Shown piece by piece: positions 248 to 22,327 of a stretch of 62,971 bases of DNA. The stretch lies in the NCBI GenBank assembly GCA_964651915.1, contig CAZYZI010000001.1:1-62971 (forward strand), in the 5' to 3' direction. Source of the stretch: an uncultured archaeon. Lineage in GTDB: Archaea > Thermoplasmatota > Poseidoniia > MGIII > CG-Epi1. The number at the start of each line of letters is the position of its first letter. The first letter of the stretch is position 1. Under the pieces are notes generated by a model. The model had not been told where the DNA came from. It did not search any database and saw only the letters and a program-made list of their open reading frames with translations. The position numbers and the translations under genes were made by a program.

Positions 248-1018
248 GTGAAAAAAATGGACATGGAAGCTGGATTTCTGATTGGATTTCGAGAAGCTCT
301 CGAAGCTGCACTTATAATAGGTGTATTAGTTAGTCTACTCTATCGAACTAATAGAGACTTTATGACCAAATGGGTTTGGGGTGGAGTGATTCTAGCGCTT
401 ATAGCTAGTATACTAACTTGGCAGGCTTTCGAAATTATTGTTGGTGAATTCTCAAAGAAAAATGAAGAACTTTTTGAAGGTGTACTATATCTTGTTGCGG
501 CAGTATTGATTACCACCGTTATTCTACACGTTATAGGCCACGCATCTAAAGAAGTTCTAGAAAATAAAGCTGAAAAAGCAATTGAAACACGTGAATCTTT
601 TGGAATAGGATTATTAGCCTTTGTTTCTGTTTGGAGAGAAGGTGTTGAAACTGTTATTTTTATAGGTGCAGGGACCGAAAGTAGTGATGCTATTACAGGA
701 CTATTCATTGGAATTATATTGGCTACAATAATTGGATATGCTCTTTTTGCTTCTACAAAAAATCTTGATATCAAATTCATGTTCAATTTATCTACTTCAT
801 TACTAATCGGATTTGCAGCTTACCTTGTGATGAAATCTATACATGAATTTGGTGAAATTGGATTTATGGGCATACCTGAAAGTTTTCCACTGCAAATAGC
901 TGGAGCTTCAGCATACTTAGTCATAGCACATTTTATTTCAGAAAAATATGGTGTTTCTTTGATAGGTTCTGTGGTTGGAACGTTCAAAGGAATAGGGCAA
1001 CTGCTTTCTAGGAACTAA
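248..1018 (+). CDS. FTR1/EfeU-family high-affinity iron permease
   Basis: 256-aa polytopic ORF with two REXXE motifs (FREALEAAL, WREGVETVIF) typical of FTR1/EfeU. GTG at 248; the in-frame ATG at 257 is an equally plausible start. Confidence 0.85.
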   Translation: MKKMDMEAGFLIGFREALEAALIIGVLVSLLYRTNRDFMTKWVWGGVILALIASILTWQAFEIIVGEFSKKNEELFEGVLYLVAAVLITTVILHVIGHASKEVLENKAEKAIETRESFGIGLLAFVSVWREGVETVIFIGAGTESSDAITGLFIGIILATIIGYALFASTKNLDIKFMFNLSTSLLIGFAAYLVMKSIHEFGEIGFMGIPESFPLQIAGASAYLVIAHFISEKYGVSLIGSVVGTFKGIGQLLSRN

Positions 1019-1906: not shown

Positions 1907-3637
1907 ATGGGTAATATCCAAGTTCTAGATGACCACACGATAAACCAAATTGCGGCAGGAGAAGTAATTGAAAGACCGGCATCTGTAGTCAAAGAACTTG
2001 TTGAAAATTCATTAGACGCTAAGGCAAAAAATATTTGGATTAGAGTCGAAGAAGGTGGTACTTCTCTAGTCATGGTCAGAGATGATGGAGAAGGGATGGA
2101 TTCCGAAGATGCAACTTTAGCTTTTCAAAAACATTCCACTTCGAAAATACGCTCTTTTGATGATTTACAAGACGTTAATACTTCTGGATTTAGAGGCGAA
2201 GCTTTGCCATCTATAGCCTCAGTATCAAGACTTAGAATTACAACTTGCAAAAAAGGAAATGACGTTGGAACTAGAATTACAATAGAAGGAAATAATAATT
2301 TAGAAGTTGAAGAACACGCTGCACCACAAGGAACTACAATTGAAGTTGCTGACCTTTTTTTCAATACGCCTGCAAGATCTAAACATCTTAAAAGAACAGC
2401 AACTGAACTTCAACATATTGTTAAAATTGTAACAACTGAAGCTATTCGAAGACCTGATGTAGCCTTTAATCTTGTTCATGGAGAAAGAAAATTGATTGAT
2501 GCACCGGCATCAGATCTAAAAACAAGAATAGGAGTTTTACTTGGGAGAGAAGCTTCTAAAGAATTAATTGAAATAAGTGGCGAATCTGAAGAAGTTAAGC
2601 TTGAAGGATTCCTAACAAGACCTGCAGTTTCTAGAAAATCAATGGCTGGATTATACCTACACATTAATGGAAGACCTGTCCAAGCAAGGAATATTTGTTA
2701 TTCGATTAAAGGCGCTTATGGAAGTTTACTTCATGACGGCCATTTCCCGATAGGTGCTTTATTTCTAGAAATTCCTGCAAAAGATGTTGATGTCAATGTA
2801 CATCCTGCTAAAACTATAGTTAGGATTGCTAGAGAAGAAAAAGTCAACAAAGAAATGAGAAAAATAATCAAAGATGTCTTGTCGGAGCAAGCTTTGATTG
2901 CTAATATTAATCTTGAAAACACAAAAACTGACTCGATATTCGGAACACCTGTTCCTAATACAGTACCAAGAACCAGATCTACACCAGTAAACTCCATTGA
3001 TAGTTTACAACAAGAATTTGATGTTAAATTGAATGAAGAAGAAGTAGAAACCAATATGCCATCTATGAGACCTCTAGCACTAATTGAAAACAAATATATC
3101 GTTGCAATGGGTCTAGATGGACTTTACATTATTGATTTTCATGCTGCTCATGAAAGAGTAATGTATGAACGTTTGAAGGATCAAGCTCGCTTCAAAAGAA
3201 TAGGAAAGCAAGATCTTCTCAAACCTATTTCTCTAGAATTATCAAAAAGTGAATCTACCGCTTTCGAAGAAATGTTGCCTCAAATAAATAACATGGGATT
3301 CGATGTTGAAAAATTTGGACCTTCTTCCTTCATGATAAGAAGTGTTCCGGCATTACTAGCAGGTTCAGAACCTGAAAGAATTAGAGAAGCAATAGATGAT
3401 ATTGTAGAAAGTGGTTCTATGAAATCAGCTGAAGAAAAACACACTTACATGATGTATACTGTTGCATGCCATTCTGCTTTGCGTGCAGGTGATAAGTTAA
3501 CGATGGCCCAAATGGAATTTGTCATAAGAGAAATGGAATCGATTCCTAATCCTTATGCTTGTGTTCATGGTAGACCAACTGTAATGACAATCACACCTTC
3601 TGAACTTGATAAGAAATTCAAAAGAAGTGGATTCTAA
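1907..3637 (+). CDS. mutL: DNA mismatch repair protein MutL (endonuclease type)
   Basis: N-terminus NQIAAGEVIERPASVVKELVENSLDA is the GHKL ATPase signature of MutL. The C-terminal half carries DFHAAHERVMYE (D-x-HA-x2-E-x4-E endonuclease motif). Confidence 0.95.
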   Translation: MGNIQVLDDHTINQIAAGEVIERPASVVKELVENSLDAKAKNIWIRVEEGGTSLVMVRDDGEGMDSEDATLAFQKHSTSKIRSFDDLQDVNTSGFRGEALPSIASVSRLRITTCKKGNDVGTRITIEGNNNLEVEEHAAPQGTTIEVADLFFNTPARSKHLKRTATELQHIVKIVTTEAIRRPDVAFNLVHGERKLIDAPASDLKTRIGVLLGREASKELIEISGESEEVKLEGFLTRPAVSRKSMAGLYLHINGRPVQARNICYSIKGAYGSLLHDGHFPIGALFLEIPAKDVDVNVHPAKTIVRIAREEKVNKEMRKIIKDVLSEQALIANINLENTKTDSIFGTPVPNTVPRTRSTPVNSIDSLQQEFDVKLNEEEVETNMPSMRPLALIENKYIVAMGLDGLYIIDFHAAHERVMYERLKDQARFKRIGKQDLLKPISLELSKSESTAFEEMLPQINNMGFDVEKFGPSSFMIRSVPALLAGSEPERIREAIDDIVESGSMKSAEEKHTYMMYTVACHSALRAGDKLTMAQMEFVIREMESIPNPYACVHGRPTVMTITPSELDKKFKRSGF

Positions 3638-6258
3638 GACCTATTTCCCTCTAAATTACCAAACTGATATAATAATGCAGGAAGCATAATTACGGCTGCA
3701 ACAAATGAAAGGAATATCATAATTGCCATTATCATTCCAAATGTAACAAACAGAGGCATAATGGACAAGGTCAGAACCATAAAACCTACGAAATCAGTGA
3801 ATGCCGACATAGCAACATTATTCCCTGTTTCATCTAAACTTTCGGCCATCCATTCCTCTTGTGTTCCATCAGGATTGTCAAACCTAGCTTCTCTTACTCT
3901 TTGGACCATATGAATTGCATAATCTACTCCTAAACCTATTGCTAAACTTGATATTTGTACTGTAACTAAATTGATGGAAGTTCCTGTTAGAACCATTCCA
4001 CCTCTTAACCATAGAGTAATCGCAACAACCGGTAAAATTGTTATCAAACTCAATCTCACATCTCTAAGAACAAATAATACAATCAAAAAGGCTAAAATAA
4101 TTGCTACAACCAAACTTTCCTGGAAACTATCAGTTATTTCTAAGACATACACATATCTTTCATAACTCAAACCTGCAACTTGTGCAGAGACGCCATTTAT
4201 CGAATTAAGATCATTACTTGCTGAATCCAACTCTACCTTTTGCTCTTCCATTAGACCATAAATATCGTCCGGCCTTTCAACTATAAACCAAGATCTTGCC
4301 ATGGTCATCTTACTGTTTTCAAGATGATACATTTCTCTAGCTTCTGATGGTGAAACGTAGTAAGTTCCTTCTAGATTAATTGTCCCATTTTTGTAAACAT
4401 CTGCTAAAACTTTGTAAATTTCTTCTTCGGAAGTAGGAAATCCTGTTGAAGAATTAACTGTTTTAGGAACATATCCCTTATTTTCTACATTTGTAGCTAA
4501 CAAAATTTGTGTTCGGATTATGTAAGGTACACTTCCTAACCACCGTGCACTCACATTTTGTTTTACAATTTCCTCCTCCATATTATCAATTTCAACTATG
4601 GTCTCATAAGTTGCAAGATTTTCACCCTCGATGACGTAATATCCTGGTTCTCCCTGTTCTGTAAATGTTGCCTGACCGATAATAACTGTTTGAATGAAAC
4701 GAGAATCATTATCTGCATATTCTTTTACATCAAATGTTGATTCTGGATTACCAAGAACAATTGGTGATAAAATAAGTGTAATAAACAAGAAAACAATTAG
4801 CATAGTAAGTGAACGATTTACCATCAATGAAGATAATTGTTTAACACTAAAATAAGCTCCAATTTTTGAGATTAGACCTTTTTCACCCGCATCCTCAGCA
4901 GGTTTAGCTGGAGGAAAATAACTTCTCAATATAGGTGCAAAAACACCCATTATCAAGTAAGCTTGAATAATTCCAATTGGTCCCAGAATACCCCATTCAA
5001 ATAAATCAGGAATATTGCTTAAGGTTGCAGTTCCAAATGCTACTACTGTCGTTACCGTAGCTACACCAAGAGCAGGAAAGAGAGTTCTAATTGAACCCAA
5101 TGCACCATGGAAACTAGCTTCTTGGGGATGATAAGGATACAAAGGATGTTCAAGTGTTAATCTACGCCAACGCGTGAGACTGTGAATCACAAAATCTACT
5201 CCTAAAGCCAACATTAGAATCGGTAGCATTGCAGCAAGTTGTGTTTGAGGAAAACCAAGCCAAAATGAATTTGCCATCATGCAAACCATTAACAAAGCTA
5301 AACCTAAACCACTTACTAACACATCACCTAAATTGCGGAAATAGAAAGACAACAAGAGAACCATCAAAACAAAAGAAACCCCAACCAAGGGTAATGTAGA
5401 ATTTATCTGATCCTCTAGTTCAAGACCAAATGCGAGATAAGAATAGAAATCTACATCTTCGTCAGATTCTAGTGAATCAAGATAATAAGCATCAACTTTC
5501 TGTTCCCAATATTCAAAGTGTTCATAATCACCTCTTTGTCGAGGATAGTCCACAAAGAGACGAGTAGAATTAGCTTCACCTATCATTGTGAAACCTTTAG
5601 CTTTCCAATATGAGGTACCTGTAGCATAAGCTTCAATATTATAATCGTAATCATCACGTGGTTTGGTACATTCATTACCTGTTACTACACAAAGATCAGG
5701 AGAAACCAAACCTCTGTATATGAATGAACCATCTTCAGAACGAATATTGAATAAGGCATTTAGAACATAAGTAAACTCCTCTTGGGTTGCTTCTTCATAG
5801 TTTGATCCTGTGTAGCCTATTACTGACGTAACTGAAGTCTCGTTATTCATTATGGAGCGAACTGTATCCGGTAAACCCCACATAGTAGAAAGTTCATTCT
5901 GATTAACTTGCCAATTGAATTTAACATCGAAATATTGACTTGTATCATTATCTGCTCTTAACTGATCATTTCGATTAGTTGTTTCTCTAAATACTTCAAA
6001 GTTCAAAGCATTGTGATTCTCAGAATCCTCTGAATCACCCATAATAATCTGGAAAACCATCCAATATTCTTCCGGCATCTTCTCTTCTGCCCTATCTGAT
6101 GCTTTCCAAACATCACTATCTGGATAAGAAAATTCTTCTCTCTGACTCATTTCTCGACCAACATCTGGTGAAAAACCTGCAAGAACGATAATGAAGAAGA
6201 AAACAAAAGCTATCATTGACAAATGCCAACGTTTTTTTGGTGACATTTCCTTAGCCAT
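3634..6258 (-). CDS. RND-superfamily (MMPL/HpnN-like) membrane exporter
   Basis: 874 aa. Two multi-TM blocks each contain G-x-GVD-[FY]-x-IH (LALGVDFVIHSL; GLGVDYAIHMVQRVRE), each preceded by a large extracytoplasmic domain. The stop codon overlaps the mutL stop (convergent). Confidence 0.8.
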   Translation of the reverse strand: MAKEMSPKKRWHLSMIAFVFFFIIVLAGFSPDVGREMSQREEFSYPDSDVWKASDRAEEKMPEEYWMVFQIIMGDSEDSENHNALNFEVFRETTNRNDQLRADNDTSQYFDVKFNWQVNQNELSTMWGLPDTVRSIMNNETSVTSVIGYTGSNYEEATQEEFTYVLNALFNIRSEDGSFIYRGLVSPDLCVVTGNECTKPRDDYDYNIEAYATGTSYWKAKGFTMIGEANSTRLFVDYPRQRGDYEHFEYWEQKVDAYYLDSLESDEDVDFYSYLAFGLELEDQINSTLPLVGVSFVLMVLLLSFYFRNLGDVLVSGLGLALLMVCMMANSFWLGFPQTQLAAMLPILMLALGVDFVIHSLTRWRRLTLEHPLYPYHPQEASFHGALGSIRTLFPALGVATVTTVVAFGTATLSNIPDLFEWGILGPIGIIQAYLIMGVFAPILRSYFPPAKPAEDAGEKGLISKIGAYFSVKQLSSLMVNRSLTMLIVFLFITLILSPIVLGNPESTFDVKEYADNDSRFIQTVIIGQATFTEQGEPGYYVIEGENLATYETIVEIDNMEEEIVKQNVSARWLGSVPYIIRTQILLATNVENKGYVPKTVNSSTGFPTSEEEIYKVLADVYKNGTINLEGTYYVSPSEAREMYHLENSKMTMARSWFIVERPDDIYGLMEEQKVELDSASNDLNSINGVSAQVAGLSYERYVYVLEITDSFQESLVVAIILAFLIVLFVLRDVRLSLITILPVVAITLWLRGGMVLTGTSINLVTVQISSLAIGLGVDYAIHMVQRVREARFDNPDGTQEEWMAESLDETGNNVAMSAFTDFVGFMVLTLSIMPLFVTFGMIMAIMIFLSFVAAVIMLPALLYQFGNLEGNRS

Positions 6259-6304: not shown

Positions 6305-6796
6305 TCAACCTTTTGGAATTAACTGGGAAACAAAATGTTCGTATTCTTCTCCAAGGTGTATGTAGCATCTTATCCAAGGATAAAGATGGCCATCTCGTGC
6401 CTTAACAAATTTCCAAACATGTCCTGCTCCCTCTAAATCCTCAGCCAAAAGAATATCTCCTCTACGAATGATTACTTTATGCTCTTTATCTTCTGCATCA
6501 ACACCGCAGCTTTGGAATTCTAAACAACCACTTAAAGTCAATACAAGCTGCCTTCTTGGCGCTGTATGTGCTAACTTAGGGCCTTCTCCTTCTAAATTTT
6601 CTGGAACTGGCGTAAGTGCAAATTGTGTTTTTAGATCACCTGTGTTGTCATATATATTCTCATTAACAAACAATGATGAAAATAGACCTACGGAACCAAG
6701 ACCTGTTTTACTAACTACTGGAATTTGCATCTTTGCAAATCTGGTGTGTCCGCTTTCGTCAGTATACATTCTGACAACTGGTATCCCCTCTGTCAT
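6305..6796 (-). CDS. Small soluble protein, possibly cupin-fold
   Basis: 163-aa ORF. The beta-rich C-terminal half (IIRRGDILLAEDLEGAGHVWKF) is cupin-like. This is a weak assignment. Confidence 0.45.
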   Translation of the reverse strand: MTEGIPVVRMYTDESGHTRFAKMQIPVVSKTGLGSVGLFSSLFVNENIYDNTGDLKTQFALTPVPENLEGEGPKLAHTAPRRQLVLTLSGCLEFQSCGVDAEDKEHKVIIRRGDILLAEDLEGAGHVWKFVKARDGHLYPWIRCYIHLGEEYEHFVSQLIPKG

Positions 6797-6827: not shown

Positions 6828-9800
6828 TTAGTGTATTCTGCGACGTAGTCCTGCTGCGCCGACTAATACAAGTGCACCAACTGCGAAACTAATGCTTGGC
6901 AATCCTGATTCGTCAGCAATTGCTTCAATTGGATCAGCTTCAGTTCCATTACCAACAGTTACTGTACCAACCATTCCCATAGTTGCATGTGGTTCACAAA
7001 CATAATAATGGGTTTTGTCATCTTCAGTAAAAGTATGTCTGAAATCAACTGTGTTGGTTGATTCACCACTGTAGAAACCAAGCTTGGCATCTTCAAGAAT
7101 CATGTCTGCATCGAACTTTGTTACAATCTCTGCGACATTATGAACATCTACTGTTCCTTTCCAAATCCAGCAAACTGTATCTCCTGCTGAAATTGTGATT
7201 TCTGCAGGTTCAAATGAATAACCACCGTCGCCAACTGTTACAATTTCATCACATTCGTCTGTATTTCCTTTACCGAAATGAACTGTTACTGGTTCATCAG
7301 CACTAAATTTAGCGTTGCTGCCATCGATAACTAAATCTTCACAGCCTTCACAAGATAGAACCTCATAGTCTTCTAAGAGAATCATCTCAACATGCCAAGT
7401 TTCGCCCTCCTCAGCAATAGGTAGGTGGGCTGAATGAACATCTAATGATTCGTCTACTCCAGCAAAATGTAGTTTGAAAGAAGTGCCAGATAGCATCGGT
7501 TTATCTTCGTTATCAGATAATGCACCTACTATATTCTCAGACATTGGTATTGGATCTGTATCTTCAGGATCTGAAACGCCTATGATTCCATCTAACAATG
7601 GTGGATTGTCGTCTCCATCATCAGCAACTGGAACCCACATGAATCCTGCACTTTCACAATCTGCTGGAGTCATAAGTTCATGTCTTACTTCATCATTCTC
7701 TGAATCATAACAAACCATTCTGAACATTACGTCACAACCATCATCGTCTACATTATCACAATATTCTGAAACATAATTTTGACAATCTGGATTATCTGGA
7801 CCTGAAGAACACGCCTCTACATGACAAGGACTCTCTGGATTATCCATATCAAATGGACATTCATCTCCAGTTCCATCTCCATCTATGTCATTAGGTCTTC
7901 CGCCGTCTTTGTAATATGTGTTACCTACAGATGATTCATATACTGGAGATTGTCCAAAGTCATCTGTACAAACCCATCGGTCATTTCCTTCACCGTCATC
8001 GTAGACTTCACAGTAATACCACCAAGTGTCCCAGTCTTCATCATCAGAATACTTGCAATACCATCGCGTATCTCCGTCACCACTGGCTTCGTCACCTTCC
8101 CATTCACAGTAACCACCATAATACTCTCCCCAGTATCCATCTTCTCCCTCGTGACCATCGTCGTCTCCATCGCCCTCAAAGATACCCATTTCTACAAGTA
8201 TATAGAATAATTCAACTACATTGTCTGCGGCTGTATCTGCTGTTATATTACCATCTTCATAATGTGTTGCATTCTCAGCAATCATAAAGATGGGAATAAA
8301 CATGTTAAAGACATCATCACAATCTATCTCTTCACCAGTTTCCTCATCATAGCAGTCTGGTTCGTAATCATGATAATCAGCTTCAGGCATATGTTTTCGA
8401 TCTGCTGTACCTTCTACTAGTACTTCTTCACCACCATTTCCACCGTAGCCTTCACTGGACACTGCATATACTTCACCAGAATCGTAGACATCGTTCTCAT
8501 TTTCATCCATGAACTGGAACCAATAGGAATCGAAGTCATAATTAGATGCCCAATTTTCAAATTCATTTTGACTCTTGATATCAAATGAGGTCTCGGCATC
8601 CATCGTGTCTAAATTTCCTGTACAACCGTCACAACCTTCACCTTCTGTTTCTAACACATTTTCATAATTTTCATAAAGATCATAAACAGAAACAAATTCT
8701 TCTTCAAAAGCTTTCGGATTATCTCCCCATTCAAAGTCGTAAGCTTCATTCCAGAACTCTTCAAAGACTAAATCATAAACAGACCCATCATAGGCAACAG
8801 TTTGCATAAATTCATCATCATCGCCTTCGTTCCATTCCCAATGATTATCGGACATATAACCATCCCACTCATCAGATTCTTCACCGTCAACTACAACATA
8901 AGCTCCATCTATATTATTGTAATAACTTGCTGAATTAATACCACCCTCAAATGTTGTATAAACCATATAGTCACCAGCGACTAAATCTACTTCTAAAAAT
9001 GCATAACCACAATTTGAGTAATCTTCGTCTTCTGAATTTACAGGACAAAACATATCATCATTATAATAATGTTTGTTAGAAGCAATCAGATCTTCACCAT
9101 GGTAAATGTATAATCCTGGATGCTGGCCGTAACACTCATCATCTACACCGTCTTCATCCCAATCATAACAATGCCAACCTGCAGAAAAAATACTTACTGA
9201 AGAATCTGTATCGATACTGAAAGATTGAGTTTGGTACATAACAAATTCTTCTTTATCATTATCATTCCAAGTATCAAAGTGAGGGAAATTTTCCATTTCC
9301 ATGCTTTCATGATGTATACTGCCATTCATGGCCCAACGCGCATCACCAAATTGTAATTTATGAGAATAAGGGCCTATGTTTGTATGATTATCATTTTCAC
9401 CATGACAGTCATATCCGACCAATAACCAATTTCCTTCATCATCGTAATCCCATTCTTGATGACAGCTACCAATTGTTACTAAGGACCAAGTGCCTGCGAA
9501 TAGCTCAGCTTCCATAAAATCATCACAGTGAACATATGTTTCGTTGTCATCACCCCAATCACAATAAGAATTACCAAATGCGACATTTTCAAGATTTCCA
9601 AAATCAGTTATCCCTGCTGAAAGATCGCCTTCAAAGAGATAAACGTCGCCCCACCAGTAATGATGATACTCCTGATATTCATCTTCTCCGTCTTCACAAT
9701 TCCACTCCCAATTATTTACTTGATTTATCCATACTTCAGAACCATCGTGACAATCAAACCAATTGACTTCTTCACCTTCACAAGTCTCATCATTCCATTC

Positions 9801-10676
9801 CTGACAATCATCAGATGTATCATCTGGTGTATTGCTATCATACCATTGCTCATCAGCTCCATCTTCACAGTCTCCATTGCCATCATTTACGGCCTGGAAA
9901 CTGATTTCTTCACCATTACCACAAACAAAATCTGGTGTGGTTTTTACATCTGTTAAGAAATTAGTATGAATTATTAGTTCACCATCTGAATTCACATCAA
10001 ATGTCTGGACGTCATACAATACTGGTCTGCCACTATCCTCATAACTTCCATCATCCATAAAATCTCCAAACTCTGGAATTATGTATTCGTCCATTAAAGT
10101 TGTAGCATCAATGTGCCCAGCTTCGTAAGCAATAACTCCCCAAACAAATTGGCCACCATCATCCTCATTATCTCTCATGAAATCATCACACATTTCTGAA
10201 TTATTATCATAACAATAGTTGTACATTGCTGTCATACATTCGAACATATCTCCATTGCCTTCATCAAAACATTCTGTGAATGTTGCACAGGTTGCATCAT
10301 CCATCTCTGGTGGACATCTGAACTCATCATCATGACCATGCTCATCATCTGACATCATCGTCTCAACCCAGTGATCGAAACATTCTTGATTAATTTCCCC
10401 AGAATCTGTTCCTAACATCATTTCACACATATCTGATAATTCATAACGCGCATCATTAGACCAATCGATTGGCATTTCTAACTGAATTTCAATCATCCAA
10501 TCTTCCAACGACTCCATAGTCATAGTAGCGTAGACCGCTTCTGGTTCTACATCTCCATCATCACGATCATCTTCGTCGTGCTCGTCTGCACCAACATTAT
10601 ATGTTGGAACTGTGACGAAAGCACTCATGACCATCATGAAAAATACTGCTAGCGTAGCTAGTCGGCTTAAGTTCAT
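6828..10676 (-). CDS. Hyper-acidic, Cys/Trp-rich secreted surface protein with C-terminal plastocyanin-like domain and PGF-CTERM-like anchor
   Basis: 1282-aa ORF with an N-terminal signal peptide (LATLAVFFMMVMSAFVTVP) and very high Asp/Glu content. It has LDLa-like DG-x2-DC-x-DG-x-DE motifs, a type-1 copper domain near the C-terminus, and the tail SGLPSISFAVGALVLVGAAGLRRRIH. Confidence 0.9.
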   Translation of the reverse strand: MNLSRLATLAVFFMMVMSAFVTVPTYNVGADEHDEDDRDDGDVEPEAVYATMTMESLEDWMIEIQLEMPIDWSNDARYELSDMCEMMLGTDSGEINQECFDHWVETMMSDDEHGHDDEFRCPPEMDDATCATFTECFDEGNGDMFECMTAMYNYCYDNNSEMCDDFMRDNEDDGGQFVWGVIAYEAGHIDATTLMDEYIIPEFGDFMDDGSYEDSGRPVLYDVQTFDVNSDGELIIHTNFLTDVKTTPDFVCGNGEEISFQAVNDGNGDCEDGADEQWYDSNTPDDTSDDCQEWNDETCEGEEVNWFDCHDGSEVWINQVNNWEWNCEDGEDEYQEYHHYWWGDVYLFEGDLSAGITDFGNLENVAFGNSYCDWGDDNETYVHCDDFMEAELFAGTWSLVTIGSCHQEWDYDDEGNWLLVGYDCHGENDNHTNIGPYSHKLQFGDARWAMNGSIHHESMEMENFPHFDTWNDNDKEEFVMYQTQSFSIDTDSSVSIFSAGWHCYDWDEDGVDDECYGQHPGLYIYHGEDLIASNKHYYNDDMFCPVNSEDEDYSNCGYAFLEVDLVAGDYMVYTTFEGGINSASYYNNIDGAYVVVDGEESDEWDGYMSDNHWEWNEGDDDEFMQTVAYDGSVYDLVFEEFWNEAYDFEWGDNPKAFEEEFVSVYDLYENYENVLETEGEGCDGCTGNLDTMDAETSFDIKSQNEFENWASNYDFDSYWFQFMDENENDVYDSGEVYAVSSEGYGGNGGEEVLVEGTADRKHMPEADYHDYEPDCYDEETGEEIDCDDVFNMFIPIFMIAENATHYEDGNITADTAADNVVELFYILVEMGIFEGDGDDDGHEGEDGYWGEYYGGYCEWEGDEASGDGDTRWYCKYSDDEDWDTWWYYCEVYDDGEGNDRWVCTDDFGQSPVYESSVGNTYYKDGGRPNDIDGDGTGDECPFDMDNPESPCHVEACSSGPDNPDCQNYVSEYCDNVDDDGCDVMFRMVCYDSENDEVRHELMTPADCESAGFMWVPVADDGDDNPPLLDGIIGVSDPEDTDPIPMSENIVGALSDNEDKPMLSGTSFKLHFAGVDESLDVHSAHLPIAEEGETWHVEMILLEDYEVLSCEGCEDLVIDGSNAKFSADEPVTVHFGKGNTDECDEIVTVGDGGYSFEPAEITISAGDTVCWIWKGTVDVHNVAEIVTKFDADMILEDAKLGFYSGESTNTVDFRHTFTEDDKTHYYVCEPHATMGMVGTVTVGNGTEADPIEAIADESGLPSISFAVGALVLVGAAGLRRRIH
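6954..7244 (-). other. Cupredoxin (plastocyanin/halocyanin-like type-1 copper) domain of the 1282-aa protein
   Basis: ITISAGDTVCWIWKGTVDVHNV ... THYYVCEPHATMGMVGTVTV. The His, Cys-x2-His-x4-Met ligand set and the Y-x-C-x-P-H-x3-G-M-x-G signature are canonical. Confidence 0.8.
9672..9929 (-). other. LDL-receptor class A-like calcium-binding Cys/Asp motifs
   Basis: FVCGNGEEISFQAVNDGNGDCEDGADE and FDCHDGSEVWINQVNNWEWNCEDGEDE match the C-terminal half of the LDLa consensus (D-G-x2-D-C-x-D-G-S-D-E). Confidence 0.5.
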
Positions 10677-14034: not shown

Positions 14035-14114
14035 ATTGATATGTTAACGCTACGGTATTTATGGGTATCTAAATTGAAACGCAACTATAAAGACCCTATG
14101 ATTTGCTCAAGAAT

Positions 14115-15125
14115 ATGGCAGTTTGGTATCGCTCCCATTTAATTCCATTCGGATTGGCTTTGATTGCCTTTTTGATTATAACAACAGGAGGATGGATTCG
14201 TATAAGTGATGCTGGAGAAAGCTGCCCAGACTGGCCACAATGTTTTGGAACTTGGGGATTTGATGTATCTGAAGAAGAACAGGCCCAATGGTGGGAAGAA
14301 AATCCTGATGAAATTGATTCAAGAGGTGCTCAACATAGATATACTACAGACCAAATTTTCACTGAATGGGCGCATCGAGGTTTAGTTGGTATAATTGGTA
14401 TTTTAGTCATTTATAGTCATTATACTGCTTGGTCACTTAAAGAGCAAATTGGATCGCGTACTTACAGAACTCATTATGTTGCAACTGTATTCTTGGTTCT
14501 TCAAGCTGTTTTAGGCTACATTACAGTAGATTTAGATAATGCACCATGGACTGTTTCCCTTCACTTGTTCATGGCACTTATGTTTACATCATCACTATTA
14601 GCAGTGAGTCTCTTCTGGTGGCAAGGGCAAGAAGGATTGCCCGATAATTTAACAGTAAAAAATGTAAATTCACAAAATCAAAATATAATTTCATTAGTTA
14701 TGATATTAATTCTAATACAATTACTAATTGGAGCTTATCTTTCAACTAGTTATCATAGAGGCGCATGTGGAGTTGGTACTACTGGTTGGCCTCTTTGTTC
14801 AAGCAAAATAATACCTTCTTTTTCAGAATTTGGAGTTTTACTACAATTAACACATCGATTTTCAGCATTAGCTATTGGAGTAATTTTAGTCTGGGCAAAA
14901 ATGCAAATGGAAGATGAAATAATTATCAAGATATTTAATTGGGCCCTTGGATTTTTTGGTTTAAATATTGCACTTGGTGGAATTTATATTGTTTCAGCAA
15001 GTGAGGGGGAATTTCCTGGATGGATTTCATTACTACACTTATTAGTTGGAGCTCTAACTTTCTTGTCAATTGCAATAGCTTACATTTTATGTGTCATCTC
15101 TAAAGAGGAGAAATCCAATGACTAA
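14115..15125 (+). CDS. ctaA: Haem A synthase (CtaA/COX15)
   Basis: ISDAGESCPDWPQCFG plus paired His-containing helices (HRG, HLFMA, THRF, LHLL) match COX15/CtaA. The ORF track opens at TTG 14103; I prefer the in-frame ATG at 14115. Confidence 0.88.
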   Translation: MAVWYRSHLIPFGLALIAFLIITTGGWIRISDAGESCPDWPQCFGTWGFDVSEEEQAQWWEENPDEIDSRGAQHRYTTDQIFTEWAHRGLVGIIGILVIYSHYTAWSLKEQIGSRTYRTHYVATVFLVLQAVLGYITVDLDNAPWTVSLHLFMALMFTSSLLAVSLFWWQGQEGLPDNLTVKNVNSQNQNIISLVMILILIQLLIGAYLSTSYHRGACGVGTTGWPLCSSKIIPSFSEFGVLLQLTHRFSALAIGVILVWAKMQMEDEIIIKIFNWALGFFGLNIALGGIYIVSASEGEFPGWISLLHLLVGALTFLSIAIAYILCVISKEEKSND

Positions 15126-16035
15126 TGAAAAACCATCTTTAGCCAAAATTTATTGGATTCTAATGAAACCAAGGGTTGTATTCCTTCTACAGGCTACTGC
15201 AATATGTGGAGTTTTAGTTTATGATTTTAGTGAAGGATACAAGAGAGAAGGATGGACGCCTATTGATAGTATAAGAACTTCTTTAATTGTATTATTTGGA
15301 GGTTCACTTGCAAGCGGGGGATCTATGGCTGTCAATATGTGGTATGAAAGAGATATAGATCCATTAATGGAAAGGACCGAAAGTAGACCTATACCATCTG
15401 GTTTCATATCTCCAAATCATGCATTGATTTTTGGAATTGTTATGTGTTTGATAGGAATTGCGATTGTGACATTTCTTTCTGTACCTGAAGCAGGAATGAT
15501 TACTGGATTCAGTGCCTTCTTCTATGTTTTCATATACACTATGTTTTTGAAGAGAAGAACGCCACAAAATATCGTAATCGGCGGTTTAGCAGGAGCAACA
15601 CCTCCTGCAATTGGCTGGATTGCAGCTGGAGGAAATGTAACTGATGTTTTACCTTGGTTAATGGTATTGACTATATTCATGTGGACTCCACCTCATTTTT
15701 GGTCTCTTACTCTTTCCAAAAGGCGCGACTATGGAGAGGCAGGAGTACCAATGCTACCTGTAGTCAAAGGTGAAGATGTTACAAGGAATCACATTGTGGC
15801 TTATACACTTATTTTAGTAATAACTAGTCTAATGATAATTACTATTGGAAATTCTGGATTATTCTTTCTTGTTACAGGTATGCTTCTGTCACTTTACTTC
15901 TGTTACCTCGCATTCTCTCTAAGAAGCAGTAAATCCGAAGAACATGCGTGGAATTTGTTTAAATTTTCTAATATTTATCTCTATTCGTTATTCATCTGCC
16001 TTGTTATTGATTCTAAATTTCATTTTACTTTTTGA
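15091..16035 (+). CDS. ctaB: Protohaem IX farnesyltransferase (haem O synthase, CtaB/CyoE)
   Basis: UbiA-superfamily motifs NMWYERDIDPLMERTESRP and TPPHFWSL. The alternative ATG at 15118 would reduce the overlap with ctaA to 8 nt. Confidence 0.9.
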   Translation: MSSLKRRNPMTNEKPSLAKIYWILMKPRVVFLLQATAICGVLVYDFSEGYKREGWTPIDSIRTSLIVLFGGSLASGGSMAVNMWYERDIDPLMERTESRPIPSGFISPNHALIFGIVMCLIGIAIVTFLSVPEAGMITGFSAFFYVFIYTMFLKRRTPQNIVIGGLAGATPPAIGWIAAGGNVTDVLPWLMVLTIFMWTPPHFWSLTLSKRRDYGEAGVPMLPVVKGEDVTRNHIVAYTLILVITSLMIITIGNSGLFFLVTGMLLSLYFCYLAFSLRSSKSEEHAWNLFKFSNIYLYSLFICLVIDSKFHFTF

Positions 16036-16099
16036 GTAATCAGCTTTAATAAACCCATTCTAAATTGCTGAAACTAATAGTATTTCTTGAGGAAATAAA

Positions 16100-16834
16100 A
16101 TGTCACTAATTGGCGATTTAATAAGTTTTGAGAACCCCTCTGTCTGGAATGACTTCGGTGGTTCCTCTGGCGGGTTTACTGGTGTCGTTTGGCAGATGGC
16201 TATCTGGTCTGTAATTGTAGCTATTTTAGTAACTGGATGGTTGATTTACAACTTAATTTATTACAGACACACTGAAGGGGATCCTGACCACAAGGATGCT
16301 CTCAAAGCTGGTGTTTTCCCTCACGAAAGAGGTAATGCTATGATTGAAATTGCATGGACTATTGCTCCTTTAATTTTAGTTTCTTGGTTAACATTTATTT
16401 CCCTAGCGCCGTTAGACTATCTTTGGGATGTTGACGGTCAAGAAGAAGATTTGACTATCGAAGTCGAGGCAGGACAGTGGTACTGGCAATTTGGAACGCC
16501 AATATGTAGTGAAAAAGGCAATGAGAATTCTTGGTGTGTTGATGGATTATACCAACAACCTCTAAGCTTTGATAAATGTAAGAGCAACATAGATTGTTTA
16601 GAGATTCCTCACGGAGCTGTTGTTCATTTCAGACTAACTTCTAAAGATGTTTTACACGCTTTTAACTTTCCTGAAATTGGAATAAAACAAGACGTTATAC
16701 CTAATTTAGAAACTTTAGCTTGGCTCGATACTAACGAGGTCGAAACCGGCCAATACAGCATCTGGTGTGCAGAATATTGCGGTGATGACCACTCGAAAAT
16801 GGATGCTGATGTTTACATAACGGAGGTTCAATGA
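16100..16834 (+). CDS. coxB: Cytochrome c oxidase subunit II (CuA subunit, no fused cytochrome c)
   Basis: Two N-terminal TM helices, then the CuA site HAFNFPE ... CAEYCGDDHSKM (H, C-x-E-x-C-G-x2-H-x2-M). Extra 4-Cys insertion CSEKGNENSWC...CKSNIDC. Confidence 0.92.
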   Translation: MSLIGDLISFENPSVWNDFGGSSGGFTGVVWQMAIWSVIVAILVTGWLIYNLIYYRHTEGDPDHKDALKAGVFPHERGNAMIEIAWTIAPLILVSWLTFISLAPLDYLWDVDGQEEDLTIEVEAGQWYWQFGTPICSEKGNENSWCVDGLYQQPLSFDKCKSNIDCLEIPHGAVVHFRLTSKDVLHAFNFPEIGIKQDVIPNLETLAWLDTNEVETGQYSIWCAEYCGDDHSKMDADVYITEVQ

Positions 16835-19080
16835 ATAAAAAGATTTTGAGTTTGGGATTTCTTGTAGCAATTCTTTTGGCTGTAACTGCATTCCCAACTG
16901 GCAATAGTTTACCAACGGGAATAGAAGATCCAAATATGGTAGCAAATGGTTGTACCTGCCATACTACGGGACCTATGTCCTCTGATGTTGTTATTAATTT
17001 AACTACTTTACCTGAAAAATATAACGCAAGCCAAGTTTACACATTTACTCTAATAATATCAGGAGGAACTGAACCTACAGAGGATGCTAATCAAGGTGGT
17101 TTCTTTATCTCTGCAAGTTATGGAACTTTAAACTCCACAGACAATACAACACAGAAACCTGAAGGAGAAACTCATCTAACACACAATGAATTTGGGAATA
17201 ACTTCAGAGAATGGTCATTCAATTGGACTGCTCCAGAATCGGATTCAAAAGTGGCTGTTTTCACTGTTTATGGTAATTCTGTAAATGGAAATGCAGGTGG
17301 AACTGACGGTGCTTCTGGAGATTATTGGAATAAAGCTGAATTCAAAGTTGCTGGAGTAAATGCACAAATTGTGGCTGAACAAGAAGAAATGTCAATGCCA
17401 CAAAAAATGGTATATGCTTTTACTGTATTATTCTTAACACTCTGCACTGTAGTTGTTGGAAATAGAATGGTTGTAGATGATAAATCTTTCGAAGATGTAA
17501 TGAAAGATTATTGGGATGCAGTTTATCCTTGGTTAACAACAACTGATCACAAATATATTGGAACCTTATACATCTGCACTGGCTTTGGTTTCTTTTTCAT
17601 TGGCGGAATTTTAGGTTTATTAATTCGATTACAACTTTTTGAATCAGATAGTGATTTCTTAACTTATGAAGAATATAATTCTACATTTACTATGCATGGC
17701 ACAACTATGATTTTCCTAGCTGCTATGCCTATCATTTTTGGATTTGCAAATTACCTTATTCCACTTCAACTTGGTGCAAGAGATTTAGCATTTCCTCGAT
17801 TAAATGCATTAAGTTATTGGCTTTTGCCAACTGGAGGTATTGTAATCTACATGGGTTACTTTACTGGAGGAGCAGGAGATGTTGGATGGACTGGATATAC
17901 TCCATATGCTTCTAACGATGCTGGCATTACAGGACCAACCAGCCCAGGTACTGATTTCTGGGTAGCTGGACAGATTATGCTTGGTGCGTCATCAACTTTG
18001 ACTGCAATAAATTTCTTGACGACTATGCTACAAATGAGAGCCCCTGGAATGACTTTAATGAGGATGCCTCTTTTCTCATGGTCTATCTTTGTAACTGTTT
18101 TCTTGTTGTTACTATCTATTCCTGTCTTTACTGTTGCACTTATTTTGTTAATGGCTGATAGAACATTTGGTACACTGTACTTTGATGTCAATGCAGGAGG
18201 GGATCCAATATTATGGCAACACTTGTTCTGGTACTTTGGGCACCCTGAGGTTTACATCGTTATTTTACCTGCCTTTGGTGTTCTTTCTGAAATTATTTCT
18301 ACTTTCTCTAGAAGACCTATTTTTGGTTATACTTCAATGGTCTATGCAATGGCTACAATTGGAATTATTTCCTTCATCGTTTATGGACACCATATGTTCA
18401 CAACTGGGGCCGATCCATTATTCCGATTTATTGTTATGTTAACTACTATGTTAGTTGCGGTGCCGACTGGAATTAAAATCTTCAATTGGCTAGCTACTAT
18501 GACAGGGGGATCTATTGTTCTCAAAACACCGATGGTTTTTGCTTTAGGAACTATTATTACATTTACAATAGGTGGTATTACTGGAATTATTTTAGCCGCA
18601 ATACCTGTAAATGTTGCCTTGCATGATGGATACTTTGTAGTTGCTCACTTCCACTATGTACTTGTGGGGGGAACTGTATTTTCCTTCATAGCTGGAGTTT
18701 ACTATTGGTTCCCTAAAATGACTGGAAAAATAATGGATGAAAAATTAGGTTTGCTTCATTTTGCAACCACATTTATTTTCTTTAATGCTGCATTCTATCC
18801 TATGCACAACGTGGGAATTGAAGGAATGCCACGAAGATATGCTACATATGATCCTGAATTTACTGAATTGAATGAATTCATTTCTATTGCTGCATTCTTA
18901 TTTGGATTTGCCCAATTAATATTTATTTACAACGTAATTTATTCTTACAAAAATGGAGAAGATGCTGATGATAATCCATGGGATGGTTGGTCACTTGAAT
19001 GGGCAACTTCGTCACCTCCTCCACATAATAGTTTTGTAGAGATTCCAACATTAAAAATTGCAGAGGAGGGAAAACATTGA
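16831..19080 (+). CDS. coxA: Cytochrome c oxidase subunit I with ~235-aa N-terminal extracytoplasmic domain fusion
   Basis: From TTDHKYIGTLY onward this is canonical haem-copper oxidase subunit I (WFFGHPEVYI-type motif FWYFGHPEVYIV, HHMF, VAHFHYV). Residues 1-235 add a signal/anchor helix, a ~160-aa soluble domain and one extra TM. ATGA overlap with coxB. Confidence 0.92.
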   Translation: MNKKILSLGFLVAILLAVTAFPTGNSLPTGIEDPNMVANGCTCHTTGPMSSDVVINLTTLPEKYNASQVYTFTLIISGGTEPTEDANQGGFFISASYGTLNSTDNTTQKPEGETHLTHNEFGNNFREWSFNWTAPESDSKVAVFTVYGNSVNGNAGGTDGASGDYWNKAEFKVAGVNAQIVAEQEEMSMPQKMVYAFTVLFLTLCTVVVGNRMVVDDKSFEDVMKDYWDAVYPWLTTTDHKYIGTLYICTGFGFFFIGGILGLLIRLQLFESDSDFLTYEEYNSTFTMHGTTMIFLAAMPIIFGFANYLIPLQLGARDLAFPRLNALSYWLLPTGGIVIYMGYFTGGAGDVGWTGYTPYASNDAGITGPTSPGTDFWVAGQIMLGASSTLTAINFLTTMLQMRAPGMTLMRMPLFSWSIFVTVFLLLLSIPVFTVALILLMADRTFGTLYFDVNAGGDPILWQHLFWYFGHPEVYIVILPAFGVLSEIISTFSRRPIFGYTSMVYAMATIGIISFIVYGHHMFTTGADPLFRFIVMLTTMLVAVPTGIKIFNWLATMTGGSIVLKTPMVFALGTIITFTIGGITGIILAAIPVNVALHDGYFVVAHFHYVLVGGTVFSFIAGVYYWFPKMTGKIMDEKLGLLHFATTFIFFNAAFYPMHNVGIEGMPRRYATYDPEFTELNEFISIAAFLFGFAQLIFIYNVIYSYKNGEDADDNPWDGWSLEWATSSPPPHNSFVEIPTLKIAEEGKH

Positions 19081-20009
19081 GTGATAGTCATGACGATCAT
19101 GGACACCATGGTACTATAGCGCCATTTGTATTTTGCATTGGTGCTGCTGTAATGTTTATTGGCCTTGTAATGGCCACTGCTGGAAATGGAGATAATACTG
19201 GAGACTCAGGATACTGGTTTGTTTTCTTCTTAGGTCTTGCAGGACTATTAACTGGATTCTTTTTATGGGTACAAGATTATTGGGATCAAGATTCTGAAGA
19301 AGGTGAAGAAATTGAGGGATATCATGATTTCTGGTCAAGTATTACTACCCGAAAATTTGGTATGTGGATTTTCTTACTGACTGAGGTTATGGTTTTCAGT
19401 ACTCTCTTGAGTGCTTACCTAAGATATCGTGCTGCAGTTCCTGATTATGATTCTGGAATTGATTGCGGATTAGAATTTGAATTGTGCTGGGTTCCTGCTG
19501 CAGATGTTATTAGAAGTCACTTGATTTTTGGTGTTATCAATACTTTTGCTTTACTTCTAAGTAGTTTAACTGTTGTACTAGCACTTTACGCTGCTAAAAA
19601 TAATAATCCAAAAGCTACTACAAGATATCTAATGGTTACTTTCGCATTGGGTGCCCTTTTCTTAATTCTAAAAATATGGGAATGGGGTGAAATGAAAAAT
19701 GGACATTTCTGGGATGCAGAACACTGTGATGTAATGAAACAAGATATAGCACATCATTGTATTGCTCCGAAATATGAGGATGGATTCTGGCTAGATACTA
19801 GTTTAGAAGGCACTACTTTCTACATAACTACTGGAACGCACGGGGCACACGTATTCGTTGGATTAATTGCATTAGTTTACTTAATTGCAAAAGCAAACAA
19901 AGGCGCATACAATGAAAAATATCATGATACAATCGAATTATTCGGTTTGTACTGGCACTACGTGGATGTAGTATGGGTTTTCGTATTCCCATTCTTTTAT
20001 TTGTATTGA
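19077..20009 (+). CDS. coxC: Cytochrome c oxidase subunit III
   Basis: 310 aa, polytopic. C-terminal TGTHGAHVFVGL ... LYWHYVDVVWVFVF is typical of subunit III. TTG start overlaps the coxA stop. Confidence 0.85.
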   Translation: MSDSHDDHGHHGTIAPFVFCIGAAVMFIGLVMATAGNGDNTGDSGYWFVFFLGLAGLLTGFFLWVQDYWDQDSEEGEEIEGYHDFWSSITTRKFGMWIFLLTEVMVFSTLLSAYLRYRAAVPDYDSGIDCGLEFELCWVPAADVIRSHLIFGVINTFALLLSSLTVVLALYAAKNNNPKATTRYLMVTFALGALFLILKIWEWGEMKNGHFWDAEHCDVMKQDIAHHCIAPKYEDGFWLDTSLEGTTFYITTGTHGAHVFVGLIALVYLIAKANKGAYNEKYHDTIELFGLYWHYVDVVWVFVFPFFYLY

Positions 20010-20016
20010 GGTAAAG

Positions 20017-20397
20017 ATGAGTGAAGAAACAGATTCCGAGCACGCACATGACGAACACCATGACCACTCTTTCCCTGTATGGGTTACACTTGGTCACACT
20101 GACAATCCAATAGAGGCATTCATCAAAATATTTGCATGGTTAGTCCTTTGGACACTTTTAGAAGTAGGTGCAATTTTGAAAGAGTTTTCTTTCGAAGTCA
20201 CCATGGTTATCTTATTTGGTATTGCGGCCATCAAATGCTGGTTTATTGGTTCTTTCTTCATGCACATGACTTGGGATCCACCATTAGTCAATAGAACTGC
20301 CGCCGTTCCTGTCTTTTTCTTAATTGTATTATTTTTAGCTGTAGGACTAACAACTCCTGGAGCTGTTGATGATTGGAAAACCCTTTGTGGTTTCTAA
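20017..20397 (+). CDS. Small oxidase subunit (prokaryotic cytochrome oxidase subunit IV-like)
   Basis: 126 aa with 3 TM helices and a His-rich N-terminus. Position directly after coxC and the KCWFIGSFFMHM helix resemble the bacterial CoxD/CtaF-type family. Moderate confidence. Confidence 0.55.
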   Translation: MSEETDSEHAHDEHHDHSFPVWVTLGHTDNPIEAFIKIFAWLVLWTLLEVGAILKEFSFEVTMVILFGIAAIKCWFIGSFFMHMTWDPPLVNRTAAVPVFFLIVLFLAVGLTTPGAVDDWKTLCGF

Positions 20398-22317: not shown

Positions 22318-22327
22318 TTCTTAATTC

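Follow-up and report, generated by a model that had tools for sequence, protein, structure and literature searches.

Which protein passes single electrons to the terminal oxidase of Marine Group III (MGIII) archaea? MGIII and its sister order Marine Group II (MGII) are abundant, uncultured ocean heterotrophs whose respiratory chain is known from gene lists alone, which contain an aa3 oxidase with Rieske and cytochrome b proteins but lack a canonical bc1 complex. The question is raised here by a window of 62,971 nucleotides (the whole stretch of DNA that was analysed) from an uncultured MGIII archaeon of the lineage CG-Epi1 (Thermoplasmatota; Poseidoniia; contig CAZYZI010000001.1 of assembly GCA_964651915.1). 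The window encodes an oxidase with a CuA centre, which needs a one-electron protein donor, and close to it lies a gene that we call BIGCUP (6828..10676, minus strand), an open reading frame (ORF) of 1282 codons and a stop. The BIGCUP protein carries a plastocyanin-like domain near its C-terminus, directly ahead of a membrane-anchor tail. We suggest that this cupredoxin module is a membrane-tethered, halocyanin-like one-electron carrier feeding CuA of the adjoining aa3-type oxidase, and we put the probability of this role at about one half. BIGCUP is thus a concrete candidate for the missing one-electron carrier, and it belongs to an order-wide, cox-linked family of ~1200-residue proteins in MGIII.

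A complete type-1 copper site at the end of BIGCUP

The cupredoxin domain covers residues 1141-1241 (6954..7256, minus strand). A textbook type-1 copper site had been proposed at 6954-7244 in a sequence-only reading of this DNA, an interval that corresponds to residues 1145-1241, and the proposal is borne out by a family match, a full ligand set and motifs that are exactly as quoted. Pfam PF00127 (Copper-bind) matches residues 1146-1241 with E=9.1e-13 (48.9 bits versus a cut-off of 21.2, profile positions 5-98 of 99). A phmmer search of the PDB retrieves Synechocystis plastocyanin 1J5C (E=4.9e-11) in an end-to-end alignment that pairs every ligand position. The AlphaFold2 (AF2) model of residues 1020-1282, based on a 56-sequence alignment, reaches predicted local distance difference test (pLDDT) values of 84-93 across most of the cupredoxin. 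The modelled fold is a Greek-key beta-sandwich, and with the domain as query the top 50 Foldseek matches are all plastocyanin or pseudoazurin (best E ~6e-8, template modelling score on the target 0.54-0.70). The first copper ligand, His1179 in VDVHNV (7140..7142, minus strand), pairs with the plastocyanin ligand His, and the remaining three form the loop Cys1227-x2-His1230-x4-Met1235 (YYVCEPHATMGM; 6972..6998, minus strand) with its C-x2-H-x4-M spacing. All four are invariant in the alignment of 56 homologues, and an extra Cys pair, C1142/C1169, is conserved in the domain. Three independent lines (Pfam, PDB sequence search, and AF2 with Foldseek) together with the invariant ligands place the cupredoxin identity far beyond chance. 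Judged by sequence and model, the domain clearly belongs to the plastocyanin/azurin family and has a complete type-1 copper site, which is presumably occupied by copper.

The closest solved structures by sequence and fold are cyanobacterial plastocyanins (Synechocystis 1J5C; Synechococcus 1BXU), with ~34% identity, the same ligand set and the same C-x2-H-x4-M loop. Cyanobacterial plastocyanin is however a soluble lumenal shuttle of 98 aa between cytochrome b6f and photosystem I, whereas the BIGCUP domain is tethered, has the extra conserved Cys pair and belongs to a non-photosynthetic archaeon. No photosystem genes were seen among the window genes, and the organism is an archaeal heterotroph. 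Among cupredoxin models, the NCBIfam halocyanin domain model TIGR03102 scores best, yet its 49.0 bits fall below the cut-off of 93.8, and the plastocyanin model TIGR02656 likewise stays below its cut-off (40.1 versus 87.85 bits).

Membrane anchor and N-terminal region

BIGCUP is predicted to be secreted. A Sec-type signal peptide can be read directly from the sequence at residues 1-30 (MNLSRLATLAVFFMMVMSAFVTVPTYNVGA, followed by DE; 10587..10676, minus strand) and is near-identical among MGIII homologues, with a mean identity to the window sequence of 0.57 over residues 1-50 (regional identities are means against the window sequence over 52 full-length homologues). The protein is very acidic (pI ~4.05, 25% Asp plus Glu) and contains 43 cysteines and eight N-x-S/T sequons; a look-up of its exact sequence returned no record. 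The window as a whole encodes TBP and aIF5A, has a GC content of ~0.37 and a strongly acidic proteome.

The cupredoxin is the last folded unit ahead of the membrane-anchor tail of the 1282-aa protein. A short linker (residues 1242-1257; 6906..6953, minus strand) of about 15-17 mostly acidic residues separates the last cupredoxin strand from the motif LPSISF. The tail itself (6831..6905, minus strand) resembles the tripartite PGF-CTERM sorting and anchor signal, with GLPSISF, a hydrophobic helix and RRRIH, and the C-terminal end reads GNGTEADPIEAIADESG-LPSISF-AVGALVLVGAAGL-RRRIH, with ESG directly before LPSISF. In alignment, the short Pro-containing motif, the helix and the basic cluster at the extreme C-terminus fall in the same columns as in MGII relatives, whose tails have the canonical (T/V)PGF; the motif of BIGCUP is P-S-I-S-F and a literal P-G-F is missing. 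No NCBIfam match to the PGF-CTERM model was found for the tail at E<=1, short models being easily lost to filters, and no window protein matched the exosortase/archaeosortase families. Because of these two negative results, processing by an archaeosortase is something we infer, and we interpret the tail as a lineage-specific form of the PGF-CTERM archaeosortase signal. Tails of this type, P[GS]x[SG]F (or PSF) followed by a hydrophobic helix and RR(R), were recognized by sequence pattern in four other secreted window proteins. These are a C-type lectin (12217-14034, minus strand; tail 12217-12300), a cyclophilin (25494-26249; tail 26180-26246), a 2203-aa protein (tail 40400-40486) and a 2379-aa protein (minus strand; tail 51920-52010). 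The five tails look like an MGIII version of PGF-CTERM. Substrates of archaeosortase A, among them the S-layer glycoprotein of Haloferax volcanii, are likewise large, very acidic secreted proteins whose C-terminus combines a short motif, a hydrophobic helix and basic residues.

The N-terminal ~1100 residues are best explained as an MGIII-specific, disulfide-rich and fast-evolving extension that projects outward. The best conserved part of this region is a twin block at residues 251-335 with motifs resembling LDL-receptor class A repeats of the calcium-binding type (CGNGEEISFQAVNDGNGDCEDGADEQWYD ... NWFDCHDGSEVWINQVNNWEWNCEDGEDE; 9672..9926, minus strand), in which many columns are invariant. 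Across the family, the calcium-cage-type motifs within residues 251-350 (...VNDGxxDCxDGADE..., ...NWFDCHDG...CxDGEDE) do not vary. Pfam PF00057 (LDLa) scores 17.4-17.7 bits here, below its cut-off of 24.1, and the six-Cys pattern is incomplete, consisting of the C-terminal DxxDCxDGxDE calcium-cage half only. Residues 336-1047 (7536..9671, minus strand) form a variable, indel-rich, beta-rich and acidic region with identities of 0.17-0.45, gaps of up to 65% and no family or fold match. The AF2 model of residues 30-1040 (49-sequence alignment) is of medium confidence, with a mean pLDDT of 62 and beta-sandwich segments at 75-90, and a Foldseek search of the PDB with this model returned nothing at E<1e-3, the resemblances to adhesin/Ig-like and S-layer proteins being weak. 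Towards the cupredoxin follow a conserved LLDGIxGVxDPxD motif and a conserved beta-sandwich that we term the pre-domain (residues 1048-1135; 7272..7535, minus strand), with predicted strands at pLDDT 77-84 and an identity of 0.48. No catalytic or cofactor domain was detected in the N-terminal 1100 residues by Pfam and NCBIfam at permissive thresholds, by AF2 or by Foldseek.

Conservation along BIGCUP is uneven. Identity is 0.60-0.66 over residues 251-350, falls to ~0.2 over residues 600-750 and 951-1000 (about half or more of the homologues gapped) and ~0.3 over residues 851-950 (more than a third gapped), recovers to ~0.5 over the pre-domain and the first part of the cupredoxin (residues 1051-1200), and is highest, at 0.70-0.72, in the cupredoxin core and tail (residues 1201-1282). 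The contrast between a drifting N-terminal region, with 17-45% identity and many indels, and a copper module at 70-72% indicates that selection acts on the copper module, and the type-1 site is under strong purifying selection.

A cupredoxin-anchor module shared across Poseidoniia

Relatives were collected by running a domain profile over one genome per GTDB species, and the related loci are numbered L001-L079. The closest loci come from MGIII metagenome-assembled genomes (MAGs), with identities of 84% (L003), 83% (L004, ALOHA_A2.5_59), 82% (L006) and 80% (L005, CG-Bathy1), and the flanking proteins are 80-95% identical to those of the same MAGs. A search with the N-terminal 1040 residues yielded 80 clusters, nearly all strong matches being proteins of 1000-1500 aa with a C-terminal PF00127 domain and one of them being 96% identical. 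Copper loop and LRRR tail occur together in 52 of the 62 clusters examined, and 33 of the 62 are complete from signal peptide to tail (1013-1504 aa, median 1262). The GTDB MAG loci add ~14 further single-ORF cases. From these sequences, the fusion is genuine and defines an MGIII-wide, so far uncharacterised family of ~1000-1500 aa. Database labels for its members are "plastocyanin", "hypothetical" and "EF-hand domain"; on proteins of 1000-1500 aa, the label "plastocyanin" covers ~8% of the polypeptide.

The position of the copper domain follows a simple rule. Over the 79 loci, the domain profile matches complete ORFs only in their last ~150 residues, and 19-30 residues separate the Met ligand from the anchor motif in each of 75 related genes, whatever the size of the N-terminal part. 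The N-terminal partner may be absent, as in anchored cupredoxins of 169-176 aa in MGII (L034, L043, L079/P0132); it may consist of one to four fasciclin domains in proteins of 300-870 aa typical of MGII; or it may be the ~1100-aa region found in MGIII. As the module always comes last whatever its partner, cupredoxin plus anchor is the constant functional unit, as a membrane-tethered carrier would lead one to expect, and by sequence this unit is found throughout Poseidoniia, in both MGII and MGIII. The small and FAS1-linked cupredoxins of the two orders (for example L034 with 171 aa, L079/P0132 with 176 aa, and L001:4976-6865) belong to the same subfamily as BIGCUP, with 42-52% identity, the same extra Cys pair, homologous anchor signals and the same anchor distance. 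They differ in having a canonical (T/V)PGF motif in place of the LPS(I/V)(S/G)F of BIGCUP and usually lie away from cox genes. In a rough neighbour-joining tree without support values, the BIGCUP domains form a clade whose sister group is the MGIII FAS1-cupredoxin domains, and the small MGII cupredoxins are nested in MGII FAS1 clades.

The N-terminal part can also stand without the copper domain. Two complete proteins, P0089 (1093 aa) and P0100, share the signal peptide, the N-terminal region, the pre-domain and a PGF-like tail with BIGCUP and lack the cupredoxin. As each module is also found alone in relatives, BIGCUP can be regarded as a fusion of the two, and the best explanation of its sequence is a Sec-exported surface protein made of two autonomous modules, the cupredoxin with its anchor and the N-terminal extension.

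In MGII, the small anchored cupredoxin gene (171-176 aa) or a FAS1-cupredoxin gene is flanked by genes for DUF2237, an SDR protein and a soluble ~120-aa Rieske [2Fe-2S] ferredoxin (L079:3922-6115; L034:9397-11573; L025, L046 and L074). The window has a DUF2237 gene of its own at 24472-24837, with no adjoining cupredoxin. In MGIII, FAS1-cupredoxin genes encode proteins of 630-810 aa with a signal peptide, at least two fasciclin domains, the cupredoxin and a PGF-like tail (L001:4976-6865, 629 aa; also L012, L015, L016, L018-L020, L030 and L037).

The oxidase partner and the gene neighbourhood

The cluster ctaA-ctaB-coxB-coxA-coxC-coxD (14103..20397, plus strand) was assigned by family matches to an A-type haem-copper oxidase with CuA. 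CoxB (244 aa) consists of a COX2 domain alone, has a complete set of CuA ligands, H...CxExCGxxHxxM (CAEYCGDDHSKM plus the His in VLHAF), and carries no cytochrome-c domain; its score on TIGR02866 (131.9 bits) is slightly under the cut-off of 147.7. CoxA reaches 698 bits on TIGR02891 (CtaD/CoxA; cut-off 670.75), and both subunits score as cytochrome-c-type and not as quinol oxidase. CoxA is unusual in its residues 1-243 (16831-17560), where a signal-like helix, a domain of ~150 aa and one extra transmembrane helix precede the canonical COX1 core. The additional domain is predicted to face outward (residues 11-171; 16861..17343, plus strand) and matches the "choice-of-anchor V" model NF041895 (88 bits versus a cut-off of 42); searches of it gave no Pfam match and no PDB sequence match. 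Its motif N-G-C-x-C-H (residues 40-45) is invariant, along with several other motifs, in seven CoxA sequences of Poseidoniia (MGIII/MGII), and the domain could possibly hold a metal or haem site or serve as a docking or electron-entry site for the donor.

The sequence-only reading found no cytochrome c, no bc1 and no small free cupredoxin in the window, and motif and hidden Markov model (HMM) scans likewise show no gene for a cytochrome c, a Rieske/cytochrome b complex or a small cupredoxin. Neither a haem-c motif (CxxCH) nor a Rieske motif (CxHxGC...CxCH) occurs in window ORFs of at least 50 aa, and a six-frame HMM scan of the window revealed no third cupredoxin, so that it holds two cupredoxin domains in all. 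The same two patterns were searched in 78 related loci and gave only two kinds of match. One is the soluble 120-aa Rieske ferredoxin next to small MGII cupredoxins. The other is a lipoprotein-like ORF of 195-214 aa with a CRGCH motif, which neighbours a gene of the flavin amine-oxidase type; it matches no Pfam family and was not taken as a cytochrome. The description "cytochrome-c-less" holds for the window but does not generalise. At a distance of ~900 bp from the P0089 gene, which encodes the paralogue without a cupredoxin, there is a CcmF/CcsA-like gene for cytochrome-c assembly that matches PF01578 and PF16327 and contains a WWD motif (gene pair L080:1156-3135, minus strand, and L080:4047-7328, plus strand; contig GC 52.5%). 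This hints that some relatives use c-type cytochromes.

BIGCUP is part of a minus-strand run of lectin, M20 peptidase, BIGCUP, hyp163 (31 bp gap) and an HAE3/MMPL-type RND transporter (46 bp gap), and the lectin start is 68 bp from the divergent ctaA start. The previously stated ~3.4 kb to the oxidase operon is accurate from the BIGCUP start (10676) to the ctaA start (14103), but the cupredoxin domain itself is ~8.9 kb from coxB. The gene hyp163 (6305..6796, minus strand) encodes a conserved cytoplasmic protein of 163 aa with no Pfam, NCBIfam or PDB match, and it directly follows the BIGCUP homologue in 22 of 22 MGIII loci with 81-93% identity. Given the short gaps and the synteny in these 22 loci, BIGCUP, hyp163 and the RND transporter gene (3634..6258, minus strand) may form one transcription unit.

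The conserved MGIII order is coxA-coxB-ctaB-ctaA and, divergently, [lectin]-M20-[FAS1-cupredoxin]-BIGCUP-hyp163-RND. Linkage to cox is seen in all MGIII loci of sufficient length (L001, L005-L009, L015, L018, L019, L022, L030 and L037; in L030 and L037 the FAS1-cupredoxin gene was the profile match). Many epipelagic-type relatives (L001, L012, L015-L020) carry one or two FAS1-cupredoxin genes directly upstream of the BIGCUP homologue. No such insert is present in the window or its closest lineages (L005-L009), where BIGCUP is the sole cupredoxin gene at the locus. On the far side of the cox cluster, 20872-23408 (minus strand) encodes a Sco1/SenC-thioredoxin fusion (481 aa), a thioredoxin-fold protein and a VKOR homologue. 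This looks like an outer-face set for copper delivery and disulfide formation, fitting the many Cys-rich secreted proteins. Between coxD and the Sco1 gene, a 181-aa membrane protein (20394-20939, minus strand) has a weak DoxX-like Pfam match (E=0.013, below the cut-off).

A candidate tethered donor to CuA

In the proposed role, the anchor and the ~15-residue linker would hold the copper domain at the outer face of the cytoplasmic membrane. There, it would be reduced at the membrane surface, presumably by the kind of Rieske/cytochrome b complex reported for MGII, and would deliver its electron to CuA of the neighbouring oxidase. The N-terminal region would be a passenger that faces outward and evolves fast. 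Plastocyanin-type folds have both termini at the end opposite the copper site. If this applies to BIGCUP, anchor and passenger would both leave the copper face free.

The tethered-carrier interpretation builds on the cupredoxin-plus-anchor format, the invariant ligands, the fixed short tether, the conserved cox neighbourhood, to which the single MGII case of L054 can be added, and the literature. Copper insertion and disulfide formation at the outer face, both required for a protein of this type, would be covered by the Sco1-thioredoxin, thioredoxin and VKOR genes beside cox. For MGII, an aa3 oxidase, a cytochrome b and a Rieske protein have been described without a canonical bc1 complex (PMC6336850), and "halocyanin" and "plastocyanin" genes, to which a role in electron transport was ascribed, rank with the most highly transcribed genes of MGIIb (PMC9723583). 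Copper proteins go unmentioned in the MGII papers of Rinke and of Orellana. In haloarchaea, halocyanin and not cytochrome c is taken as the one-electron carrier to terminal oxidases, and a halocyanin-CbaD fusion exists (PMC8305020). The haloarchaeal halocyanins (Natronomonas pharaonis; halocyanin-CbaD fusion OE_4073R) are type-1 copper proteins that a lipid anchor keeps on the outer side of the membrane, in hosts with a CuA oxidase, and halocyanin is regarded as the one-electron donor to the terminal oxidase (PMC8305020). BIGCUP resembles them in its type-1 copper site, its predicted location and the CuA oxidase of its host. The differences are in the anchor, which is an N-terminal lipobox in halocyanin and C-terminal and PGF-CTERM-like in BIGCUP, the 1100-aa N-terminal extension, the lineage (Thermoplasmatota/Poseidoniia) and the sub-cut-off TIGR03102 score.

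Sulfocyanin (SoxE) of Sulfolobales and plastocyanin-like proteins of ammonia-oxidising Thaumarchaeota are membrane-anchored blue copper proteins regarded as standing in for cytochrome c between a Rieske/cytochrome b module and a haem-copper oxidase. They are small and anchored by an N-terminal helix, and the sulfocyanin gene is located inside an oxidase supercomplex operon. Tethered blue-copper donors are known already; what is new here is that a surface module of ~1100 residues is fused on across a whole order, along with the anchor-proximal rule.

The proposal that the domain donates to CuA stands as far as the complete site, the membrane-proximal position, the CuA oxidase and the conserved cox linkage are concerned, but it is weakened by the location outside the cox operon and by a CoxA that is not plain. 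Several further observations also speak against it. BIGCUP is encoded on the other strand, behind the lectin and M20 peptidase genes, and synteny conserved in a single order may reflect simple inheritance. In MGII, a member of the subfamily is found near cox in only one of ~55 loci (L054, within 10 kb, with a FAS1-cupredoxin gene ~1 kb from coxB). To our knowledge, there is no characterised precedent for a ~1100-residue passenger on an electron shuttle, and such a passenger would slow lateral diffusion and could hinder docking. The existence of P0089 and P0100 implies that the N-terminal region has a function of its own, and the CcmF/CcsA-like gene beside P0089 indicates that at least one organism with a BIGCUP relative encodes cytochrome-c maturation machinery. 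The CxCH domain on the outer face of CoxA might be the real electron entry point. Many MGIII relatives carry a second, FAS1-cupredoxin gene next door, and small anchored cupredoxins, which are very common in MGII, may also be encoded elsewhere in this genome. The profile search gave 2332 database matches, and no small MGIII-labelled cupredoxin was among the 120 matches listed, a list saturated by MGII proteins and filled mostly by a second MGII small-cupredoxin family (~160 aa). The assertion that the only visible cupredoxins are modules of huge proteins is therefore one about the 63-kb window and not about the genome.

BIGCUP might act as one of several carriers or as the only one. A stronger version, in which the copper module of a giant envelope protein is the only equivalent of a mobile carrier between the quinol-oxidising complex and the aa3 oxidase in bathypelagic MGIII, is in our view a long shot. 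If it were true, the architecture of the cell surface would include the final transfer of electrons between molecules in respiration. The module might then dock on the CxCH-bearing CoxA domain, and it might link respiration with the binding of particles or cations by the N-terminal region or with electron uptake from outside the cell. If the giant protein is a carrier at all, this would be an unusual example of a respiratory shuttle joined to a large surface structure. Should it play no such part, the BIGCUP family would still be an uncharacterised, conserved and predicted copper-containing envelope component of a globally distributed archaeal order.

Alternative roles

The alternative that survives best, although we consider it unlikely, is a redox-active surface protein whose N-terminal region binds particles, polymers or metals, with the copper site relaying electrons between extracellular substrates and the membrane, for oxidation or reduction outside the cell or for electron uptake, and not for core respiration. 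The sequence-only reading had also named extracellular redox chemistry as an alternative. A large exposed protein with conserved calcium-binding-type LDLa-like motifs would suit such a role, as would the weak Foldseek resemblances to adhesins and Ig-like surface proteins. The surface and degradative neighbours point the same way, namely the M20 peptidase and the C-type lectin, whose tail is of the BIGCUP kind, and so do the placement of the second cupredoxin of the window in another giant surface protein and the existence of metagenomic giants with up to 11 tandem cupredoxin domains. However, the N-terminal 1100 residues contain no detectable cofactor-binding or catalytic domain, and a single type-1 copper centre would be separated by more than 10 nm of polypeptide from the distal tip without intermediate redox centres. 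The N-terminal region is also poorly conserved and gives way in relatives to fasciclin repeats or to no partner at all, whereas the copper module does not change.

Less likely again is a role mainly in envelope structure or adhesion, as an S-layer-like protein or an adhesin, with the cupredoxin serving as a conserved membrane-proximal stalk or spacer whose copper site stabilises the fold and does not transfer electrons. The N-terminal model has weak Foldseek matches to the Haloferax S-layer structures 7PTP and 7PTU, and the haloarchaeal S-layer glycoprotein is likewise large and very acidic, with a PGF-CTERM-type anchor. The eight sequons of BIGCUP and the occurrence of N-terminal region and anchor without a cupredoxin would also fit. 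Nevertheless, the four ligands and the electron-transfer loop spacing are strictly invariant in more than 50 diverged sequences and the same module stands alone as a 170-aa anchored protein, which argues for a redox function. A content of 43 cysteines is moreover atypical of S-layer proteins.

By analogy with cupredoxin-like partners of FTR1-type permeases, the copper domain could be a ferroxidase- or cuprous-oxidase-type component of metal uptake, with the acidic N-terminus scavenging cations. An FTR1 iron permease gene (248..1018) lies ~6 kb away and is syntenic in L005, L006, L008, L013, L014 and L022, and the N-terminus contains stretches rich in His, Asp and Glu. The gene order makes this link unlikely, as hyp163, the RND transporter gene, MutL and another gene separate FTR1 from BIGCUP and FTR1 is on the other strand. 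The window contains no multicopper or P19-type partner, and MGII subfamily members have no FTR1 neighbour, so that we regard a role in metal handling as very improbable. Finally, a mis-assembly or frameshift chimera of a surface-protein gene and a small halocyanin gene, for which the mostly 150-300-aa proteins of a first homologue search might have spoken, can practically be dismissed, because the short matches are contig-end fragments starting at internal residues and because signal peptide, copper loop and tail share one ORF in 33 clusters from independent assemblies.

Further cupredoxins

The second cupredoxin of the window had been located inside another huge anchored protein, and this is confirmed. 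The 2379-aa protein (ORF 51917..59056, minus strand) contains an internal, amicyanin-like domain at residues 1834-1912 (53321..53557, minus strand) that matches PF00127 (E=1.4e-6) and TIGR02657 (E=5e-10) and has the motif THTV...YYCKYHPMM. In contrast to the anchor-proximal domain of BIGCUP, it is ~470 aa from the anchor of its protein, among repeats resembling those of the myxosortase-dependent M36 family. A rhomboid protease gene directly downstream (50896-51813) was considered as a rhombosortase and rejected at 23 bits versus a cut-off of 84. In public metagenomes, giant proteins of 1350-3670 aa (P0119, P0126, P0128 and P0150) carry 8-11 tandem related cupredoxin domains.

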